From assembly GCA_963665095.1 (NCBI GenBank), contig OY762069.1, positions 4,064,001 to 4,128,000 on the forward strand: a DNA stretch of 64,000 nucleotides. Reading direction: 5' to 3'. The translations under genes were made by a program, and so were the position numbers. The notes beneath the pieces were generated by a model. The model saw nothing but the letters and a program-made list of their open reading frames with translations. It searched no databases and was not told the origin of the DNA. How positions within the stretch are numbered: the first letter of the stretch is position 1; each line of letters starts with the position of its first letter. The stretch comes from an uncultured Desulfobacter sp. (lineage in GTDB: Bacteria; Desulfobacterota; Desulfobacteria; Desulfobacterales; Desulfobacteraceae). Of the stretch, positions 45,083 to 57,455 are shown piece after piece.

Positions 45083-45280
45083 TGCTTTCTCCTGGTTTTA
45101 AAATCAGCCTCAAAATGATCCTTATCCGGCCTGTATACAGTGATTACAAAGATCATTTTATTCTGATCATCATAGGAAATAATAACATGCAAAGGGTCGT
45201 TATGCCACATCCTAAAAAATAAAGCGCTTGGAAATGGGGTGTCATCAGGGTAGTTTTCTGTTAATTCTCCATCAATGATT
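45079..45280 (-). pseudogene. DUF4258-like toxin, 5'-truncated
   Basis: IDGELTENYPDDTPFPSALF..PLHVII..VITVYRPDKDHFEADFKTRRKQ*, with an ATGA overlap to the zinc-finger gene; no N-terminus found. Confidence 0.7.
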
Positions 45281-45373
45281 CCAAGGAGTCAGCGGTTACC
45301 GAATAGAAAATTGCCATCTCGGTTTTCCTTTTTTCATTTGATATTCGTCAGAATTATCAATAAAACATCATCC

Positions 45374-45987
45374 ATGAGTCATTCAACTTTAAACTATTAC
45401 AGTCAGAATTACCTGGAAGTTGCCCGGAGGTATGAATCTGCTGATGTCACACAACTTCATGAGTTTCTATCATCCAGCCTGAAACCGGGCGGCAGGCTCC
45501 TGGAGCTTGGGTGCGGTTCGGCAGGGATGCCGCATTTATGGTCAGCCGGGGATTCAGGGTGCTGGCGACGGATGGTTCCGCATCCATGGTTGAACAGACA
45601 AAAATACACCACCCTGAACTTGTGGAACATGCGGTTCACATGGAACTGCCGGGAGGACTGTCAAATGAACTGGGGGTATTTGACGGCATATATGCCGTTG
45701 CCGTTCTGATGCATCTTTCCTTACAGGACATTGAAAGCACAATATCCGCCGTTTATTCGCTTTTGCCGGAAAAGGGCCGGTTTGCGTTTTCAGTCCCGGC
45801 CCGGCGGGATGATGTCATGACCAATGAATTTGACTCCAAAGGTCGGCGATTCACGGCATTATCACCGGACGGCTGGAAAGAGTTATGCCGGAAGCACAAT
45901 CTGCAGATAGTCCGGACCATGACTTCCGAAGATGGTCTGGGAAGAGGCGGGGTCGTCTGGATGAACTGTCTGGCAGAAAAGCCTTAG
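45374..45987 (+). pseudogene. Class I SAM-dependent methyltransferase with one frameshift
   Basis: MSHSTLNYY..LLELGCGS in one frame continues as GRDAAF..FDGIYAVAVLMHL in another; the shift is at ~45518. Confidence 0.8.
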
Positions 45988-46144: not shown

Positions 46145-48367
46145 ATGGATATTCAGACGGTACAATTTTATAATTCAAATGCAGATAGAATAACAGTGCA
46201 GCATCACCAATCTGAAAGCTGGATTGGGCGGTATCTGGCACAAGCCTTTACATCTGGTTGCTCGGTTCTTGATATCGGCTGTGGTCCCGGGCGTGATTTA
46301 AACATGCTTGTTGAAGCTGGATATGATGCGCATGGCATTGAGCCGTGTGATAAATTTATCAAATCTATATCTTACACATATCCGAATCTTTGCCAGCGGG
46401 TTAAAAGCGATTCACTGCCGAGCCTTGAAACAATTTCTGACAATTCGTATGACTCAATTTTTTGTTCGGCTGTACTCCATCACCTGCCCAGGGAACTGCT
46501 GTTCGATTCGGTTTACTCTATTCGCCGCATTCTTAGAGAGAACGGACGGATACTGATCTCTATTCCTGTTGATTCGACAATGACAGATCAACGGGATGAA
46601 AACGGATGCCTGTTTAATGGTGTAACGGCTGAAAATTTTCAGTTGATTTTTGAGCGGATAGGCTTTCGTATGATCAGTCGCTGGGATAACGAAAACAGCT
46701 TTGAACATGGGCACCGTAACTGGGTTATCATGTTGTTTACCCTTGGATCAGCCGATGGTTCCCGCAGTTTGGATAAAATTGAAGGGATTCTTAATAAAGA
46801 TAAGAAAGATGCAACATATAAACTGGCCCTGTTTCGTGCACTGGCTGACATTGCCATGACTAATTATAATTCGGCGGAATGGCTGCATGACGGTCGCGTT
46901 GCACTGTCAATTCAATCTATCTCCGAAAAATGGCTTGAATACTACTGGCCGATTATTGACTCAGACATATTTATTCCGCAGAAGCGCGGTGAAAAGAAAG
47001 ACAGCCGGAAACGCATTGCGTTCCGCGCACAGATGAATGATCTCATTGAATGCTATCGCAGTAATGGCGGCCTATCGGCCTTCTGTGTAGATTATCGTAA
47101 TCAGAAGTTGGAAAAAGATAAAACTGTAAAACAACTTTTCTCTAAACTCAACTCAACCATTAAAGCCGGACCTGTTTATTATTCCGGGGGCGGTGGTTCC
47201 AAGACCTTTGATTACGATAAGTACTCTAAGTCGGTGATTATGGATGCCGATATTTGGAGAGAATTATCAATTATGGGAAGTTGGATTACCGATGCGACTA
47301 TCCTGCGCTGGGCCGAATTAACCAAAGAAATTTCTAACCGTGAAATAAAGGCAAGCCAAATTATTGATCTTCTCCTGGAAACGCCCATTTCGGAGCGGGA
47401 TGTGGCATCGGCACGCGGCTTATATGAAACAATGGACAATAAGGTCTGTGTATGGAGTGATAAAATTATTACTGTTAAATTCGATGTGGATCATGCTATT
47501 CCGTTTGTGCTGTGGAAAAATAATGACCTGTGGAATCTGCTGCCTGCCGATCCCACGGTAAATAACCAGAAACGTGATAAGCTTCCAAGTCGTGATTTAC
47601 TCCTTTCCCGCAAGGATTGTATTGTTAATTACTGGGAAAAAATGTACGGAAAATTTGAGAACCGCTTTAAATTTGAAGCGTCAAGATTTGCCGGGAAGCA
47701 GGCCTTTGCAACAAAAAATTGGGAAAATAAGCTTTTTGGCGCGCTCACCGAAGCCACCGAGATCACAGCTATCCAGAGAGGCGTTGCTCGCTGGGAACCT
47801 GACGGCATCAAAGTGCAGCGTTATTCCCAAAACAAAAAGAGACAAATTGATATCCAATCTGCAGAATCAGCGATTTCTGAAAAATGTATTATCAAAATAT
47901 TGGATACTAAAGATATCGGGGCGGCCATGTTTAAAAAGGCCCTTCCCTTTGTGGGGGATATTGCGGCGGGAGAACCGTTCCGGGGGTTTGATATATATGA
48001 TCTGCATTCTGCGCCAGATGAACTGGACTGGATCGAGGTGCCTGAAAGACTGTGCAACGATCGCAGATTTCTGATACGGGTTGCCGGTAATTCCATGGAG
48101 CCCACCATCATGAAGGGGGATTATCTTGTCTGCGAATACCATCGGCATCGGCAGCAGAACCGTGATATTGTGATTATGGGTGACTTTTCTGTGCTGAGTG
48201 ACGGGGAAGTTGCTGTGAAACGTATTTCTGAATCAGAACATCACTGGATTTTCAAATCAGACAATCCACAATATGAGGATATTCGTCTGGAAAAAGAATA
48301 TGACGACCAATATCCCATTTTAGGAACGGTTATTTACAATTTGACCAGGGCTGTCCCTTGCCATTAA
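46145..48367 (+). CDS. Methyltransferase - HNH nuclease - S24 (LexA/UmuD-like) peptidase fusion
   Basis: VLDIGCGPGRD; TYKLALFRAL; CVWS..DVDHAIPF..NDLWNLLP..VNNQKRD; DIAAGEP, GNSMEP, AVKRI. Confidence 0.85.
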   Translation: MDIQTVQFYNSNADRITVQHHQSESWIGRYLAQAFTSGCSVLDIGCGPGRDLNMLVEAGYDAHGIEPCDKFIKSISYTYPNLCQRVKSDSLPSLETISDNSYDSIFCSAVLHHLPRELLFDSVYSIRRILRENGRILISIPVDSTMTDQRDENGCLFNGVTAENFQLIFERIGFRMISRWDNENSFEHGHRNWVIMLFTLGSADGSRSLDKIEGILNKDKKDATYKLALFRALADIAMTNYNSAEWLHDGRVALSIQSISEKWLEYYWPIIDSDIFIPQKRGEKKDSRKRIAFRAQMNDLIECYRSNGGLSAFCVDYRNQKLEKDKTVKQLFSKLNSTIKAGPVYYSGGGGSKTFDYDKYSKSVIMDADIWRELSIMGSWITDATILRWAELTKEISNREIKASQIIDLLLETPISERDVASARGLYETMDNKVCVWSDKIITVKFDVDHAIPFVLWKNNDLWNLLPADPTVNNQKRDKLPSRDLLLSRKDCIVNYWEKMYGKFENRFKFEASRFAGKQAFATKNWENKLFGALTEATEITAIQRGVARWEPDGIKVQRYSQNKKRQIDIQSAESAISEKCIIKILDTKDIGAAMFKKALPFVGDIAAGEPFRGFDIYDLHSAPDELDWIEVPERLCNDRRFLIRVAGNSMEPTIMKGDYLVCEYHRHRQQNRDIVIMGDFSVLSDGEVAVKRISESEHHWIFKSDNPQYEDIRLEKEYDDQYPILGTVIYNLTRAVPCH

Positions 48368-49443: not shown

Positions 49444-52400
49444 CTATTTTTTTTGTTTTATGGCATCCAGAGCCTGGTGGAACCGGTATTTTTTTAGCGC
49501 GGTTTTCACATTTTCAAACAGTTTTGCGTCATCCGGTTCGAGGGCTGCTTCTTCAAGCACGGCTAACAATGGCTGGATTAGATGGGGGCGGCGGGTTTCA
49601 ACCGCTTCAGACAGTTGCTCCCATAACTCGTTGCATTTTTGGGTGGTTATCTTTTTTAGGGTTACCCTGTCCGGTTGCGCCTGAAAAATGCTGCTGGCCC
49701 TGATTTCACCAATGACATCATTCAGGGCTTCATCAAAGGCGGGCAACAGCGTTTGGTCCAGAGTCATTTCAATCTGTTCGGCAAGTTTGTGCAGTCTTGC
49801 AGCGCCGATATTGGCGGCAAGTCCCTTGATGGTGTGTGCAATACGCTCGGCCTGATTTTTGTCTTTATCAATTGTTTCCCGCAGTTTGGTTGTAACGCCC
49901 TGGTATTCACCGGCAAAGTTGCATAGAAGCTTGATGAAAAGGGTTTTGTCCCCATTCGTATGGCGCAGCCCAAGCGGCACATCCAGTTGCGTCAACGCTT
50001 GAAGCCCTTCCTCCAGAGACGCTTTGACATTTTCAACAGATGCCTCAGGTTGCCCGGAACTGGTATCGCTTATATTGCAGGGCTCGCATTTTTTTGAAAC
50101 AAACTTAAGCAATGTCAGAAACAGTTGATCCACTTCAACGGGCTTGCGAAGATGTCGGGTGGCCCCGATCTCCATGGCCTGCCTCACATCGCTTTCCATG
50201 GCGCTGGCCGTGAGTGCAATGATTGGAATATGCTGATTAATCCGCCGTATTTGTTTGGTTGCTTCATACCCGTCCATCACTGGCATCTGGATGTCCATGA
50301 AGATCAGTTCGTACTGCTCAGGTGCGTTTCTGACCATTTCCAGGGCAATTTGTCCGTTTTCTGCTTCATCAATCATAATGCCGCTGCCGGTCAGTATGCC
50401 GCATATAATTTCACGATTCAGCTTAATGTCGTCCACCAGAAGGATTTGGCTGCCTTTAAGGGTTTTAATCTCTTTCCTCAATGATGCAATGTTGATGCTG
50501 CTCTGGGGCGGTGTCTGTTCAATGGTTTCTCCGGTGAAAATTTTGTGAATGATATTGTGAAGGTAAAAAGGGCTGACAGGTTTGAGCAAAAAGGCGGCAA
50601 TTTTTTCTTTTTCTGCCTCCTGCATCATGCGTTTCTGGTGATAGGCCTGGGTCATGACAATGATACCTGTGCCGCTGCCGGGTTGCCTGTTTATGGCCGT
50701 AATGGTTTCCTTCCAGCCCATGGCCTGGATGTTCCGGTCCACAAAGACCAGGTCAAATTTTTCCCGGGTGATCATGTCAACCGCTTTTTTACCGTCTGAT
50801 ATGGCCTGTGTCCTGATATGATACTGGCCCAGCATTTTTTGAAGGATACGCCGCCACGAGGCGGAACCGTCAATGATAAGTGCGGTTTTATCGTCAAATG
50901 TCTCTGATTCAACGGATGACTCTGTGTTCTCAGGCTGCTCAAAGAGCGTTACCTCAAAAGAGAAAACGCTGCCTCTGCCAGACATGCTTTTTACCCAGAT
51001 CCGGCCATCCATCATCTCCACCAAGTGTTTTGAAATGGCAAGGCCCAGGCCTGTACCGCCATATTTACGGGTGGTGGATTTATCCGCCTGTGAAAAGGAG
51101 AGAAACAGTCGTCCTATCTCCTCGTCTGTCAGGCCGATGCCGGTATCTGTCACGTCAAACCGGAAACGGTTCTCTCCGATTTTTTTGCAGTATATGCCCA
51201 CCTCCCCTCTGTTTGTAAATTTAACAGCGTTGTTGATCAGGTTGGTCAGGACCTGGCCCAGCCTCAAGGGGTCGCCGTGCAGATGCATGCAGGTAATGTT
51301 GTCGTAGGAGACAATCAGGTCCAGATTTTTCCGGGCCGTTGTCATCTCCACCAGGGTGGTGACATTTTCAATCACCGTATTCAACTCAAAATCAATCTGT
51401 TCAAGTTTAAGTTTACCAGCCTCAATTTTTGAGATATCCAGGATGTCGTTGATAATACCCAAGAGTGCGCTGGCAGAAGTTCTCATCTTTTCAGTAAAGT
51501 CCTGCTGGACTGGGGTCAATTCCGTCTCTTTCAGAAGATAGAGCATGCCGGTAATGGCATTGATGGGGGTGCGGATTTCATGGCTCATGTTGGCAAGAAA
51601 CGCGCTTTTGGCTTTTGACGAGGCAACTGCCGCTTCCCGTTTCTGTTCCGCCTGCTTGCCGATAAGTGCTATCTTTTTGTTTTTTTCCCTGAGGGCATTG
51701 ATCCTTCCGGCCAGTACGATGGAAAAAAGGCTTGCTTCAAGTGCAGAGCAGCACTGGTGGAAATAGTTTGTGAACTTACCATGGGGAAGAACTCCCAGAA
51801 ATGTCAGGCCTGCAATGGACGTTGACACCAGAACCAGTGCCCATATGAATATAAAGTGTTTTGAATAAGGGATACGGTGTCGCAGGCTTTGAAAACTGAT
51901 GAACAAAAGAACAACCGGATATATGCCTGCCAGGCTGGCTGTGTAGATATTGGCCAGAGGCGCCGGCACCACAAAAAGGATCAACAGGCCTATGGCCGAC
52001 AGTGCTATGATGATGTTCATTAATCTATCTGATAAGGGGATGTAGGCTTTCAGACTTAAAAACTGTTTTGAGAAAATCGCTGCAAATCCAATGAGAAGAA
52101 AAACAAATATAGGCATGGCTTTGATGTTGAACTGCGGGAAAAAAGGCCATAAATACTCGTACCCCAGTCCGTTAAAAGAGAGCTCAAAAAGAGCGGTGGG
52201 TGCAATATGCAGGATAAACAGCAGAAAACTTAAATCTTTTGTCGTCAGGTATACCAGCAGATTATAAAAGATGATTACAAACATCAGACCGTAAAAAGCA
52301 CCCATCAGGCAGTATTCGTTTTTTGCATGCTGCCAGAATGCCTGTTTTTTCCATAAAGTCAGAGGGGCCCGGAGGGAGTCATCTGTTTTGAGCTTGATGA

Positions 52401-52875
52401 AAACATACTGGTTTTCCCGGCCTTCAGGGGGAAGATTGAAAAGGAAGTTTCTGTGCCTGATTTCCCAGTCGGCCATTGGTACTTTTCTTCCGGTAAGTTT
52501 GTTGTGGGTTAAAATAAAGTTGCCGCGGGTATCTTTGACAAAAACAAACAGTTCAATCAGATCTGTATGGGGCCAGTCAAATTCCAATAACATATCGCCG
52601 GGTTTCGGCAGGTTGGTCTGAATGGTGAATTGCAGCCAGAAAGTGGCATCGGTGTAACCCAGATTGGGAACATCGCGTTTGCTTTTTTTAAATCGTCCTG
52701 CCGTATGCTGTTTGACGATATCATTGATGGTCCATTTACCCTGTTTATCCTCCAGAAGTTCAATATGGCCGCCCAGGGGATAGCATCCTTTGCCCTGCTC
52801 TATCACAACAGGAAGGGCTGCATGGGATAGTGCAGTGACCAATTGTAATAACATGCAATAGAGAAACAGTTTCAT
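49444..52875 (-). CDS. Hybrid sensor kinase with 7TMR-DISM-like extracellular and 7TM input (HisKA-HATPase-REC-REC-Hpt)
   Basis: Signal peptide, PNLGYTDATFW, GAFYGLMFVIIFYNL plus ~7 TMs, [29 protein letters not shown]. Confidence 0.9.
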   Translation of the reverse strand: MKLFLYCMLLQLVTALSHAALPVVIEQGKGCYPLGGHIELLEDKQGKWTINDIVKQHTAGRFKKSKRDVPNLGYTDATFWLQFTIQTNLPKPGDMLLEFDWPHTDLIELFVFVKDTRGNFILTHNKLTGRKVPMADWEIRHRNFLFNLPPEGRENQYVFIKLKTDDSLRAPLTLWKKQAFWQHAKNEYCLMGAFYGLMFVIIFYNLLVYLTTKDLSFLLFILHIAPTALFELSFNGLGYEYLWPFFPQFNIKAMPIFVFLLIGFAAIFSKQFLSLKAYIPLSDRLMNIIIALSAIGLLILFVVPAPLANIYTASLAGIYPVVLLFISFQSLRHRIPYSKHFIFIWALVLVSTSIAGLTFLGVLPHGKFTNYFHQCCSALEASLFSIVLAGRINALREKNKKIALIGKQAEQKREAAVASSKAKSAFLANMSHEIRTPINAITGMLYLLKETELTPVQQDFTEKMRTSASALLGIINDILDISKIEAGKLKLEQIDFELNTVIENVTTLVEMTTARKNLDLIVSYDNITCMHLHGDPLRLGQVLTNLINNAVKFTNRGEVGIYCKKIGENRFRFDVTDTGIGLTDEEIGRLFLSFSQADKSTTRKYGGTGLGLAISKHLVEMMDGRIWVKSMSGRGSVFSFEVTLFEQPENTESSVESETFDDKTALIIDGSASWRRILQKMLGQYHIRTQAISDGKKAVDMITREKFDLVFVDRNIQAMGWKETITAINRQPGSGTGIIVMTQAYHQKRMMQEAEKEKIAAFLLKPVSPFYLHNIIHKIFTGETIEQTPPQSSINIASLRKEIKTLKGSQILLVDDIKLNREIICGILTGSGIMIDEAENGQIALEMVRNAPEQYELIFMDIQMPVMDGYEATKQIRRINQHIPIIALTASAMESDVRQAMEIGATRHLRKPVEVDQLFLTLLKFVSKKCEPCNISDTSSGQPEASVENVKASLEEGLQALTQLDVPLGLRHTNGDKTLFIKLLCNFAGEYQGVTTKLRETIDKDKNQAERIAHTIKGLAANIGAARLHKLAEQIEMTLDQTLLPAFDEALNDVIGEIRASSIFQAQPDRVTLKKITTQKCNELWEQLSEAVETRRPHLIQPLLAVLEEAALEPDDAKLFENVKTALKKYRFHQALDAIKQKK

Positions 52876-53052
52876 TCAGGGAAACCTGTGTCTAAATTTT
52901 TAAACGGGATTTGACTGGATTGTTACTGTCAAATCTATAACGGATTGAAAAAAATGTCAAAAAAGGAATTTTGTACCTGCCGGCCCGCAGGTGTTATGGG
53001 TTCAACATCCTGAGCGAAAAATTTGTCTTTTGACGAAGCGTTGTCTGATAAC

Positions 53053-53085
53053 AACAAAGGCCCCGCAATTAACAGGGCCTTTGTT
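53053..53085 (-). terminator. Terminator hairpin after the ThiF-nitroreductase gene
   Basis: AACAAAGGCCC (53053-53063) / GGGCCTTTGTT (53075-53085). Confidence 0.6.
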
Positions 53086-53149
53086 CTTTTACAAAAATTG
53101 GGAGGGAATCATAAATTGGGGGTCAGGTAATATTCCATTTTTTATTTTT

Positions 53150-55177
53150 TCAGTCCAGCAAGTTGTCAAAGCCCTGCCTCAGGGTGCCGAAACGCATATC
53201 TTCGCCCATGCCAAATCTGAACAGCATGATCTGGGCTTTCTCATCCAGGTTGGGGATGGAAAAAAGAGAGTTATATTCCGGTTTTATTTTTTCCAGCATT
53301 TTGGTGTGGGCCGCTGAAAACTCAACGTCTCCTTCCATCTGAAGTCGCAGGAAGAACATGGTGAGGGCCGTCATGGGCTGGAACTGGTATCCGGCATGGG
53401 TCAGGCCCAGCCAGATCCGTTCCAGGGCCCGGCCGCCGTTAAGGAGCTGGTCGCGTCCGGTGCCGTCCACAGTTACAAGGCCCACGCCGGAGGCGTTCAT
53501 GATGCCCTTATGGGCGACAGCCGCCACGATTCGTCCGATGCCAAGGGTATTGGCAATGCTCATCATGCCCCAGCTTTTGGTCAGCTTCAGGAAGAGCTCG
53601 CCTTCCGGCCCGCCTTCCAGGTTTTTAAGGTAGAACCCGTCCCTTTTTTCCATGGCGTCGTCCAGGGTAAACCGGATCATGGCATTAAGGTGTTCGTGCA
53701 GGTCCCGGCGTTCGGTTCTGATCCGGTCCGCCATACTGACAAGACGGGCCACTTTCTCAAGCGCTGCCCGGTCCGTGATAAAATGGACTCCGGTGCCCTG
53801 GATATCCTTAATTGAGGAGGAGAGCCGCTCTAACATGGGCGCTGGCGGATCAGCTATTTTAAACAGTTTGCGGTTGGTGTGCCGTTTCCATATCATATCG
53901 GCCAGCGGGTCTTTCTTTATACCGGCCTCTTTTGACAGATTAAGTTCTGCCACCTTGTTCCCATCGTTTGAAAACCGGACACCTGCTTTCAGTCCCAGCT
54001 TTGTGGCTGCCAGACGCATGTTTTCAATGGCGGCCCCGCAGGAGATAAGGGATGCGGACTGGTTGACGTTAAAAAAGGAGTGGTCCACAGCCTCGTTTAA
54101 AAACAGGGAGACTTTATCCGGGTCATAACTGAATTTCCAGGGCTGGCAATTGTCGCCGGAGGGTGCCTGGATGCCGGCGTGGATAATATATTCCAGCATC
54201 TCCTTGGAAATTTCTGTATCTGTGGCCTTGACCGCCGGAATTTCCGCCTCTTCCGGGCCAATGGTGGTATTCTTGTTAATCATCTTTTTGACAACTGTTT
54301 TTTTGACCCGCTGCCAGGGATGGCGGTTGCCCATGTGCAGTTTTTTGACAATGTATTTGCCGATGTACGGATCAAACTGGGTAAAGTAGGGAACCGGATG
54401 GATTTTTCCGCGTTTACAAAGAATTTTCACTGCCTCAGTACCGGCAAGTCCTGCGCACAGCTGACAGGCAATGTTCAGGGACGGGCCCTTCCGGGATTTG
54501 AAGCTCACTTTGGAGGTATCCATGTACTTAAACTGGAGTGCTTTGGGAGCGAGCCCTAAGGCAAAGGAGAGATAACGGTCCTCGTACTCCATGCTTTCAA
54601 CAATATCAAAATATTCATCAAAGCCCATACCCCGGTCCGGGGCAAACACCAGCATGGCCGAGCTGAATCCCAAAGGTCCCGCTGTAATTACATGAAGCCC
54701 TTTTTCCCTGGCTTTTTTAAAGAGCATCCGCCGGGCATCAAAGGCGAAAAAGTCCAGAGCGTCAATGACCAGATCCAGTCCGTCCAGAAATTCATCAATG
54801 TTGTCCGGGCCGATCCCTTTGGGGAATTCTTTAATGGTTATAAAGGGGTTGACACTTAGTGCCTGCTCCTTCATCACCGTCATTTTCTGTCGTCCGAAAT
54901 CAGGGACCCGGGCACCGAACTGCCGGTTGATATTGGCCGCCTCATATACATCATAATCAGATATATGAAAATGTCCGATCCCGGTTCTGACCATGGTCAT
55001 GAAGTGGTTGCCGCCAACTCCGCCCATGCCTGGAATCCCCACAGTGGCGTTGGCCAGGGTATCCTGTTCCTCCTGGGTCAAAAGGCCCAGGTTCCGTGAA
55101 AATGCCTCGTCAAAATACTCTTTTCTAGTAAAAAGGCTGTACTCTGCGAGTTTTTCCATCAAAGGTGCAATGTCCAT
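53150..55177 (-). CDS. ThiF adenylyltransferase - nitroreductase didomain protein (OxzB-like architecture)
   Basis: FSRNLG, GMGGVGG, DYDVYEAANINRQ, IDALD (ThiF); APSGDNCQPW, RHTNR, GRALERIWL (nitroreductase); AGGAG RBS. Confidence 0.88.
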   Translation of the reverse strand: MDIAPLMEKLAEYSLFTRKEYFDEAFSRNLGLLTQEEQDTLANATVGIPGMGGVGGNHFMTMVRTGIGHFHISDYDVYEAANINRQFGARVPDFGRQKMTVMKEQALSVNPFITIKEFPKGIGPDNIDEFLDGLDLVIDALDFFAFDARRMLFKKAREKGLHVITAGPLGFSSAMLVFAPDRGMGFDEYFDIVESMEYEDRYLSFALGLAPKALQFKYMDTSKVSFKSRKGPSLNIACQLCAGLAGTEAVKILCKRGKIHPVPYFTQFDPYIGKYIVKKLHMGNRHPWQRVKKTVVKKMINKNTTIGPEEAEIPAVKATDTEISKEMLEYIIHAGIQAPSGDNCQPWKFSYDPDKVSLFLNEAVDHSFFNVNQSASLISCGAAIENMRLAATKLGLKAGVRFSNDGNKVAELNLSKEAGIKKDPLADMIWKRHTNRKLFKIADPPAPMLERLSSSIKDIQGTGVHFITDRAALEKVARLVSMADRIRTERRDLHEHLNAMIRFTLDDAMEKRDGFYLKNLEGGPEGELFLKLTKSWGMMSIANTLGIGRIVAAVAHKGIMNASGVGLVTVDGTGRDQLLNGGRALERIWLGLTHAGYQFQPMTALTMFFLRLQMEGDVEFSAAHTKMLEKIKPEYNSLFSIPNLDEKAQIMLFRFGMGEDMRFGTLRQGFDNLLD

Positions 55178-55187
55178 AAGAAATCTC

Positions 55188-55483
55188 CTATTTTTTTGAT
55201 CCGGGACCCAGGTAGATAACCGCAGGCAGACCCACAAGGTCGGCAATGAAAGCGGTCAGCATAATCACGGCACGTAAGACGCCGAAATTAACATGGGTGT
55301 GAATTTTAAAAAAACCATGACACCGAACCCAATACCCGGGGTAACTGATGATGTCGGAATGGCTTGACTTTTTTTCATGGTAACCCGGTTAGGGGCCTCA
55401 TCACGATCCTGGCCTTTCTGCCGCAGCTTGATATATTCATACAGGAAATGGATGGTATCATCAACGGCTTTTCCAGGCGTCAT
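55188..55483 (-). pseudogene. C-terminal remnant of an MMPL/RND transporter
   Basis: AVDDTIHFL..GIGFGVMVF, then after a frameshift NFGVL..IMLTAFIADLVGLPAVI..*, ending at the RBS of the ThiF gene. Confidence 0.75.
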
Positions 55484-55766
55484 AATTATATATTGGATAA
55501 TGATGCTTATATCCTTTATACTGTCATTTCTATTCATCGTAGAATAGTTCATGTTGTGTATATTTTTTAAAAAAGCGGGTACCCCAAAAAACGACCGGTC
55601 AAGGACAAACGACATCGCAATAAAACACCAGTGAGGCTGCAGTACGAAATTGAGTTTGGTTTTCATCTTTTTTTCTTGACTTCGACAGGAGTTTAAAAAT
55701 ATACCTGACGGTATCACGAACCATTTTTTTTATCTACATAAAATTGAATTATTTTTGGGAGTTGTG

Positions 55767-56498
55767 ATGTTTGAATACGGGAAATTCAAATTCAAGGAAG
55801 CCGCAACCCAGGAGTTGAAAGACCAGGTTTACAGACTGCGGTACGAAGTTTATGCCATGGAGTTCGAATTTGAGAACCCTGCCGATTTCCCGGACAAACG
55901 TGAACAGGATGATTATGATCCGTATTCCATTCATTTTGTGGCACTTAATGAGTATGACGAAGTGATAGGTACTGTCAGAATCATTCTTGAAAATGAAAAA
56001 GGGTTTCCTGCGGATCATGCATCTGACACGTCAGGGTTCAAGGACCGGCCTGAAGACAGGCATTTGACGGAAGTGTCCCGCCTGGCTGTATCCAAAACCA
56101 TGAGGCGGCGGCCTGAAGACGGTCTTCACGGGGTGGAGTCTTATCTCCCCCGGTCAAAGGGCGGCGTGGCAGATGCGCCTGACAGGCACAAGGGGTCTGA
56201 AAAACGGCAGCAGCCGGTTATCATCCTGGGATTATACAAGTCGGTATATCTCAAATGCAAGGAACTGGGCATTACCCACATGGTGATGATCACCGAGGAA
56301 AAACTGTTCCATGCCCTGTGTCAGTTTGGCTTTATCTTTTATCAGATCGGCCCGTCCGTGGAATATCATGGCCAAAGAACCCCTTACGGCACCTCATGGG
56401 CTGCCATTGAGCGGTACATGTACGAGACACATAAAGATCTTTTGGAATTTCTCACCTTTGGACTTGATAAAGAAGACCTTCCTGAATTTTTGCAATAA
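55767..56498 (+). CDS. N-acyl amino acid synthase-like (PEP-CTERM/exosortase-associated, FeeM-like) acyltransferase; start approximate
   Basis: YRLRYEVY..EQDDYDPYSIH..GTVRII..EVSRLAVS..GPSVEYHGQRTPY. Confidence 0.85.
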   Translation: MFEYGKFKFKEAATQELKDQVYRLRYEVYAMEFEFENPADFPDKREQDDYDPYSIHFVALNEYDEVIGTVRIILENEKGFPADHASDTSGFKDRPEDRHLTEVSRLAVSKTMRRRPEDGLHGVESYLPRSKGGVADAPDRHKGSEKRQQPVIILGLYKSVYLKCKELGITHMVMITEEKLFHALCQFGFIFYQIGPSVEYHGQRTPYGTSWAAIERYMYETHKDLLEFLTFGLDKEDLPEFLQ

Positions 56499-56528
56499 TA
56501 AACAGTACCTGAATGAAAACACCAATTA

Positions 56529-56569
56529 AAAATACCACTGCCCGGCAGAATGCCGGGCAGTGGTATTTT
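56529..56569. terminator. Strong bidirectional terminator
   Basis: AAAATACCACTGCCCGGCA-GAA-TGCCGGGCAGTGGTATTTT, a perfect hairpin. Confidence 0.9.
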
Positions 56570-56627
56570 TACTTAACAGCCGTTAAAAAGATCGCAATTT
56601 TCGCTGATTAAATTTTGCCTGGGTATA

Positions 56628-57455
56628 TCAGGAGCCCGTGGCAAAAAATGTTTGCGGCTCTTTGGGGGCGGCACAGTTTTCATTGAGCCATTTGGCTTTA
56701 TCTTTAATGGGGCCGTCCTTCATGATTCTTGCCCCTTCCGGACATGCCTTGATACAGGCACAGCACAAAATACAGTTTGCACCGATAGTCATGTACCCGT
56801 TCTCTGCATCAATGGCGTTTGACGGGCAGGCTGTGGCACAGGTGCCGCAGTTGGTACACTGATCCGTGACCTGAATAAAGTCCGGGGCACCCTTGCCCAT
56901 ACCGTCCTTGTAGGGAAAGTTTCCCGGTACCTTCAGAGGCGGCAGGGTTGTCAGATCATTGGTCTCTTTGAGCAGATCCCCTGTATATTTACCAAATTCC
57001 TCAGCCAGGCCCAGGTCGTTTTCATCCGGACGGTTCATGGCCACAGGAATATCTGCGTTTGCAAAGGAGTGTTCTCCAATAAAAGCAGCCCCTGAAACAG
57101 GGATAAATCCACACGCTGTTGCAATATCTCTCAGCTCCAGCAGGGCATCGTCATATTCCCTGTTTCCGTATACCACGGTCAGCAGGGCAGGGGTGCCGGA
57201 TGCCTTCAGCGTTTTAAAAGCGTCTGCGGCATCGGCAGGTAGACGACCGGCATATACGGGTGCCCCTAACAGAACAATATCATCGCTGCCAAAGGCAGCT
57301 GATAAGGAATCGCGAGCTTCCGGACGGGTAATATTAACCGTGGTAATGGTGGCTCCGTCCATGCCAAGTTCCTGGGCAAGGCCCTGGGCAGTCGCCTTAA
57401 GCACTGTTTCTGTGGTCTTGGTCGGGCTGAAATAGACCAGTGTGATGTTTTTCAT
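56628..57455 (-). CDS. Flavodoxin-like / 2x[4Fe-4S] ferredoxin (EFR1-like)
   Basis: YFSPT..T, PVYAGR, VYGNREYDDALLEL, CTNCGTCATACP, CILCCACIKACP. Confidence 0.88.
   Translation of the reverse strand: MKNITLVYFSPTKTTETVLKATAQGLAQELGMDGATITTVNITRPEARDSLSAAFGSDDIVLLGAPVYAGRLPADAADAFKTLKASGTPALLTVVYGNREYDDALLELRDIATACGFIPVSGAAFIGEHSFANADIPVAMNRPDENDLGLAEEFGKYTGDLLKETNDLTTLPPLKVPGNFPYKDGMGKGAPDFIQVTDQCTNCGTCATACPSNAIDAENGYMTIGANCILCCACIKACPEGARIMKDGPIKDKAKWLNENCAAPKEPQTFFATGS

Follow-up and report, generated by a model that had tools for sequence, protein, structure and literature searches.

A likely oxzAB-type gene pair with a distinct flavin domain in a Desulfobacter genome, beside a probably unrelated hybrid kinase

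Three genes occupy positions 49444 to 56498 of a 64,000-nucleotide (nt) stretch of DNA from an uncultured Desulfobacter sp. (contig OY762069.1), hereafter the window. An acyltransferase gene (55767-56498, plus strand; 243 amino acids, aa) is divergent from a gene encoding a ThiF-nitroreductase fusion (53150-55177, minus strand; 675 aa), whose ATG start has an AGGAG motif 7 nt upstream. The third gene, on the same strand as the fusion and 274 nt from it, encodes a 7TMR-DISMED2 hybrid kinase (49444-52875, minus strand; 1143 aa). A sequence-only reading of the window had proposed an OxzAB-like synthase pair whose product might be sensed by the kinase. Open reading frames (ORFs) and Pfam matches bear out its coordinates, orientations, and domains for all three genes. 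The divergent arrangement of the enzymes also stands, but the 589 nt between them are not a plain intergenic gap: they hold a deleted, frameshifted MMPL-family transporter gene (55188-55666, minus strand). Folding reproduces the hairpin claimed between synthase and kinase at precisely 53053-53085 (−17.1 kcal/mol for the plus strand, −25.7 for the minus strand), and it likely is a two-way terminator; the short U-tail on each strand explains why it was missing from the output of a terminator scan. Related loci often carry a convergent PEP-CTERM gene in its place.

All 30 bins of the interval 52400-56700 are covered by four sequencing runs from four studies. One of them, run X3, is nearly identical to the window and may derive from the same source. 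Moreover, the whole interval lies on a single contig from a diverged strain (run X7, which differs by 15 substitutions), so the gene arrangement is real and not an assembly artefact. (Depth in run X7 is about 4, and some strain differences may be sequencing errors.) The host is presumably a sulfate reducer, judging from its named relatives: Desulfobacter and Desulforapulum proteins match at 60-61%.

The acyltransferase is a GNAT enzyme that passes the TIGR03694 profile (exosortase-associated acyltransferase, ExoAT) with 179.7 bits, the cut-off being 111.95; it also matches Pfam FeeM weakly. In a quick tree it clusters with ExoATs, apart from FeeM-type enzymes, and the host genome contains exosortase and PEP-CTERM proteins. 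Identity to the TIGR03694 gene product preceding Rheinheimera pacifica oxzB is 27% over 211 aa (E 4e-16). The acyltransferase likely is an OxzA-like ExoAT, presumed to synthesize N-acyl amino acids. A LuxI-type acyl-homoserine lactone (AHL) synthase identity was rejected, the match to solved synthases reaching only E 0.075. Two genomes of the same genus (L150 and L155) conserve the divergent promoter region before the gene (window 55700-55790) at 66-68% across 150 nt, with shared short boxes.

The fusion joins Pfam ThiF and Nitroreductase domains within one protein. It scores 1006 bits with PRK14851 (below the cut-off of 1170), 362 with PRK08223 (cut-off 266), and 272 with PRK07877, the Rv1355c/TrzAS family (under the cut-off of 476). 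Its structure model (mean pLDDT, the predicted local distance difference test, 90) is matched best by the Acg flavoprotein fold (2YMV), with ThiF enzymes next; a sequence search found no solved structure of OxzB. Overall, the fusion is 32% identical to the R. pacifica OxzB-type protein (612 aa, E 3e-85) and 24-25% to Rv1355c/TrzS-family proteins (E about 5e-35). The two domains differ in their affinities. The cyclase domain is 42% identical to that of R. pacifica, 39-47% to those of proteobacterial fusions, and 23-24% to two Rv1355c-family proteins. The flavin domain, by comparison, reaches just 18-23% identity with proteobacterial OxzB-type domains (the FDO-A8 subgroup; R. pacifica, 19-20%) and 20-24% with Rv1355c-type domains, and in trees of 28 proteins the Desulfobacterota flavin domains, save two diverged copies, form a branch (92% support) distinct from that of the proteobacterial ones (100%).

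The same 28 proteins, when aligned, share invariant residues in the cyclase (G50, G55, D74, D76, N84, R85, K98, and D142) and in the flavin domain (S340, N343, Q345, R432, R436, P601, R654, and R667). In addition, R487 and Q600 appear to correspond to TrzS R540 and Q651, as judged from an alignment made without the M. smegmatis sequence itself and from the 111-residue spacing. Both TrzS residues are needed for desaturation (PMC12856293). Strain changes in the fusion are 15 synonymous and five non-synonymous, and flavin domain identity has a median of 49% among 30 sampled homologues. This conservation, the mostly synonymous changes, and the retention of the mapped residues suggest that the window flavin domain is being maintained. 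We conclude that the fusion likely combines an OxzB-like cyclase with an Acg-type flavin oxidoreductase, in a PRK14851-like Desulfobacterota branch.

Of 160 other genomes of the family, 38 have a fusion homologue, as do 19 of 300 sampled from the order. The family survey, with neighborhoods taken as 8 kb, comprised 38 wide loci from 37 of those 38 genomes, 35 of them fusions; its context flags come from BLAST with representative queries plus a motif, some contigs end early, and it covers homologues other than the four closest (P0002-P0005, 73-86%). Among the 35 fused loci, 30 have an acyltransferase. The 22 family loci with an ExoAT nearly all include an MMPL or LolCDE-like exporter (20/22), and most include a PEP-CTERM gene (16/22). 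In the closest relatives, LolD-like, LolC/E-like, LolA-like, and DUF1302 genes follow the pair, along with a convergent PEP-CTERM gene. The window genome has an exosortase, eight PEP-CTERM-motif ORFs, an intact MMPL gene, and LolA-like/DUF1302 genes, but it scatters these functions, with exosortase lying at 4.35 Mb, MMPL and FeeM at 4.51 and 4.55 Mb, respectively, and LolA-like/DUF1302/PEP-CTERM at 4.59 Mb. A metagenome scan returned no match above 58% identity.

Some related clusters carry possible tailoring genes (L159:7411-8886, L160:7280-8794, L154:6402-7775, L164:15689-16948, and L150:3878-4594), encoding B12 radical-SAM enzymes, MGT-like glycosyltransferases, and LbH acyltransferases. 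At several order-level loci (L033:7725-8882, L037, L040, L028, L063, and related ones), the fusion is preceded by FeeM fused to a cyclic-nucleotide-binding domain, an arrangement that we take to resemble the cAMP-activated synthase NasP.

The MMPL remnant retains roughly 47 codons from the start and 95 from the end of a gene for 762 aa. About 1.85 kb was deleted internally, one frameshift is present, and the stop codon overlaps the ribosome-binding site of the fusion. The remnant is 77-78% identical in nucleotide sequence, upstream region included, to the intact paralogue 390 kb away (G000:C1:4506835-4509120). Its identity to the MMPL genes of related loci is 37-50%. The corresponding gap in 12 of 12 related loci tested contains no MMPL trace. 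Strain changes in the remnant are two synonymous and five non-synonymous, against 15 and five in the fusion (Fisher P 0.065).

These observations bring together a ThiF-flavoprotein fusion, an adjacent OxzA-type acyltransferase, and an OxzB/TyzB-type cyclase with an intact ATP site, and the pair likely works like oxzAB. On balance, we favor the view that it is the Desulfobacteraceae version of oxzAB, making an exported oxazolone lipid for a PEP-CTERM/exopolysaccharide surface system, and that the kinase probably is unrelated. In this pathway, the ExoAT would move an acyl group from acyl-coenzyme A or acyl-acyl carrier protein onto an amino acid, probably an aromatic one. The ThiF domain would then adenylate the carboxylate with ATP, with ring closure following, and the flavin mononucleotide (FMN) domain would desaturate the alpha-beta bond, passing electrons to some acceptor in the host. 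Finally, the product would be exported into the surface layer by carriers encoded at other places in the genome, namely the intact MMPL paralogue together with the LolA-like/DUF1302 genes; export is assigned to the distant paralogue because the local copy is deleted.

Several points weigh against this view. With so low an identity of the flavin domain to OxzB-type domains, the substrate may differ, and so may the acceptor. Both TyzC and TrzS require O2 (PMC12856293, PMC10404671), so the difficulty that the sequence-only reading had seen in the FMN step of an anaerobe stands. Clusters from Stieleria, Massilia, and Thalassotalea with the same three activities yield ring-open dehydrotyrosines, and no oxazolone has been seen there. 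The window ExoAT has a branch of 0.44 in the quick tree, longer than the 0.06-0.29 of its sisters, and its strain changes are two non-synonymous and one synonymous, numbers too few to judge. A second, FeeM-type acyltransferase lies beside the pair in 15 of the 22 ExoAT family loci; the FeeM copy of this genome (G000:C1:4554422-4555279) is 435 kb from the pair. PrsR (TIGR02915), expected of a PrsK/PrsR-regulated PEP-CTERM system, is absent from the genome above its cut-off (best score 429 bits versus 502.6). Lastly, some DISM sensor occurs in 14 of the 38 fusion-bearing family genomes versus 8.3 expected, with a nominal P of 0.012 that treats kin as independent.

As an electron acceptor, the product of a flavodoxin-ferredoxin gene in the window (56628-57455) was considered and rejected: the gene is convergent, lies behind a 20-bp hairpin, follows nrdD-nrdG, and occurs in none of the related loci searched. 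(The segment 56628-60350 runs from nrdD-nrdG to this EFR1-like gene and ends at the hairpin, 56527-56571, which is 12 nt shorter in two strains.)

A broader proposal, which we offer tentatively, is that sulfate reducers have an oxazolone synthetase branch of their own. Its FMN desaturase would run without O2 on a cellular acceptor or serve as an O2-gated switch, and the exported heterocycle would shape the biofilm, explaining the effect of DVUA0034. This Desulfovibrio vulgaris Hildenborough gene on pDV (WP_011176612; position 40,114 falls inside it) encodes a PRK14852-family protein 41% identical to the window fusion over 687 aa. It belongs to a sulfate reducer, as the window gene presumably does, and it resides within an XrtA/PEP-CTERM locus; it differs in being a FeeM-ThiF-flavoprotein triple fusion. 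DVUA0034 is transcribed in anaerobic biofilm (5626 transcripts per million versus 1428 after dispersal, −3.94), and its overproduction alters biofilm formation (PMC6170446). It is absent from the readable supplements of a response-regulator mapping paper and from the DVUA0057 targets listed.

An alternative, rather unlikely in our estimation, retains the same enzymes but has the anoxic pathway end with the saturated oxazolone (which is a reactive acyl donor) or with its hydrolysis product, desaturation occurring only on meeting O2. TrzS under O2 limitation indeed stalls at a cyclized, non-oxidized intermediate (PMC12856293), and some anaerobic relatives keep the cyclase beside MMPL while the flavin domain is either missing (L166, L167) or diverged with loss of the R487 equivalent (L043:8890-10899, L182:8948-10966). 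The window flavin domain, however, retains all mapped residues, and its conservation among homologues and between strains, described above, speaks for its being maintained.

Quite improbably, the local cassette could be a partly decayed duplicate, with the distant FeeM-type synthase supplying the fusion and the ExoAT redundant or otherwise employed. The deletion of the MMPL gene between the enzymes fits such decay, as does the FeeM gene that this genome carries elsewhere; moreover, 23 of 35 family loci have FeeM along with the fusion, and in D. vulgaris and several relatives the two are joined in one protein. However, the five closest loci showing an acyltransferase all have a divergent ExoAT (64-69%), four of the five without FeeM within 8 kb; in the validated pair from proteobacteria, the acyltransferase is a TIGR03694 enzyme; and the ExoAT reading frame is intact in four of four sequencing runs.

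The kinase is complete, consisting of 7TMR-DISMED2, 7TM, HisKA, HATPase, two receiver domains, and Hpt. It shares the DISMED2, 7TM, kinase, and receiver architecture of RetS/LadS-type kinases, but it has an extra Hpt domain, and its match to the RetS sensor structure is not significant (E 0.98). A sigma-70-like promoter site (TTGACA-17-TAGATT, 52932-52960, minus strand; 10/12 consensus) lies 57 nt before its start. (Such sites are consensus matches only, with 17 found versus 10.3 ± 3.7 in shuffles.) The flank beyond the kinase is a plastic region, with a methyltransferase gene apparently split over two frames (45275-45987), a methyltransferase-HNH-S24 peptidase fusion of 43.5% GC (46145-48367), and a hicB gene nearby.

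Conserved linkage of kinase and enzymes, on which the sequence-only reading had made its signaling claim depend, was not found. No DISM sensor lies within 8 kb in the 22 ExoAT family loci that carry the pair, in 16 further order-level loci, in 14 loci from a GTDB scan, or in 15 metagenome loci (these sets overlap, so the counts are not additive), and none of the 22 has a histidine kinase within 3 kb. The single instance among the 35 fused family loci is L176, in which a non-orthologous DISM kinase (26% identical) lies about 6.5 kb downstream, three genes away. Close orthologues of the window kinase were found only in G407 and G408 (64-65% in the sensor part; the next best, 35%), where intact ExoAT-MMPL-fusion-FeeM-PEP-CTERM clusters are 1.05 and 0.92 Mb from the kinase gene; homology between the window and G407 around the kinase is limited to that gene alone. 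Two other genomes of the genus (G335 and G336; one contig, 100% complete, fusion 59-60%) have no kinase match at 1e-20. The order level shows no DISM excess (5/19 fusion-bearing genomes versus 3.7 expected, P 0.31).

A role for the kinase in the pathway was thus rejected on synteny. Since relatives keep the pair beside export and cell-surface genes, the kinase probably is an orphan, a chance neighbor outside the pathway; a recent, lineage-specific link to the pair is possible. That the product is an autoinducer sensed by this kinase, in a non-AHL quorum-sensing circuit, we consider highly improbable: the adjacency and shared orientation of kinase and fusion, the family-level DISM excess, the L176 kinase, and a signaling role proposed in print for oxazolones are set against the synteny results, the hairpin and promoter-like site between the genes, and reported DISMED2 inputs of calcium (LadS) and glycans (RetS). 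Nothing relevant emerged from a search of the literature for 7TM-DISM ligands.

Other loci seen during the survey pair synthases and kinases differently. Contigs of candidate phyla (Doudnabacteria and others) carry an operon with, in order, a ligase-like ORF of about 500 aa, a TrzS-type ThiF gene, a flavoprotein gene, and a HisKA_7TM histidine kinase gene (L070:6234-11598, L071, L073, the identical L220-L222, and L223; L215 lacks a ThiF match). The operon holds together down to 33-45% identity. The ligase-like ORF has no Pfam hit; we presume from its motif that it is phenylacetate-CoA-ligase-like. This operon is a much better candidate for a synthase with its sensor than is the window. At five family loci, four from one genus and one from another, a MASE11 hybrid kinase gene precedes a FeeM-ThiF-flavoprotein triple fusion in the same orientation, at a distance of 150-270 nt (L034:240-2078, L176:15365-17206, L177:11714-13555, L178:11662-13503, and L179:7688-9433).

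Oxazolone pathways have so far been characterized only in aerobes, and both tested oxidases need O2. With a branch conserved across an anaerobic family (38 of 160 genomes) and a genetically tractable D. vulgaris homologue already tied to a biofilm phenotype, it becomes testable where the electrons of the desaturase go and what oxazolone lipids do at the cell surface. Quorum sensing would have been the more striking finding, but at the window locus the evidence does not back it. Likely new here are oxzAB relatives in an anaerobic lineage, with their distinct flavin domain and the decay of the exporter gene. In the literature searched, no paper assigns an oxazolone pathway to sulfate reducers, but Desulfobacterota members may be listed in Craig et al. 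2011, in the TrzAS supplement, or in de Rond et al. as published in a journal. (Further background comes from PMC3333781, PMC12479983, PMC12596934, PMC7695008, PMC4641369, PMC1569441, PMC11072679, PMC11511702, PMC5646257, and PMC12654214.)

The nearest characterized system is OxzA/OxzB of Pseudoalteromonas rubra, R. pacifica, and others, in which OxzA acylates tyrosine and OxzB cyclizes and oxidizes the product (de Rond et al., bioRxiv 10.1101/2020.06.11.147165). According to the same preprint, oxazolones were obtained in E. coli with oxzAB from five species, including R. pacifica, and the list of 56 homologues is alpha-, beta-, and gammaproteobacterial. The protein that NCBI names R. pacifica (P0290, whose strain may differ from the one tested) is a 654-aa fusion with a TIGR03694 gene (242 bits) directly upstream and a PEP-CTERM gene downstream. 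Thus, R. pacifica and the window share a TIGR03694 acyltransferase adjoining a ThiF-nitroreductase fusion, the 42% identity of their cyclases, and a PEP-CTERM neighborhood, seen for the window in its relatives. They differ in arrangement, the window pair being divergent with an MMPL remnant between the genes whereas oxzAB is operonic; in the flavin domain, which has a branch of its own and reaches just 19-20% identity; and in host, the window's being an anaerobe. The mycobacterial TrzA/TrzS (Rv1356c/Rv1355c) and TyzA/B/C systems share with the window their domain logic, an Acg-type flavin fold (Acg is a reported TrzS homologue; PMC12856293), and the apparent counterparts of R540 and Q651; an MMPL gene, mmpL9, flanks tyzBC in M. 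tuberculosis (PMC12856293, PMC10404671). The window cyclase is only 23-24% identical to theirs, the PRK07877 score (272 versus 476) sets the fusion apart, and both characterized oxidases depend on O2. Taken together, the acyltransferase family, the OxzB-type cyclase, the flavin-site residues, and the conserved pairing support the biosynthetic half of the sequence-only reading, an OxzAB-like pair with a predicted acyl-amino-acid-derived product.

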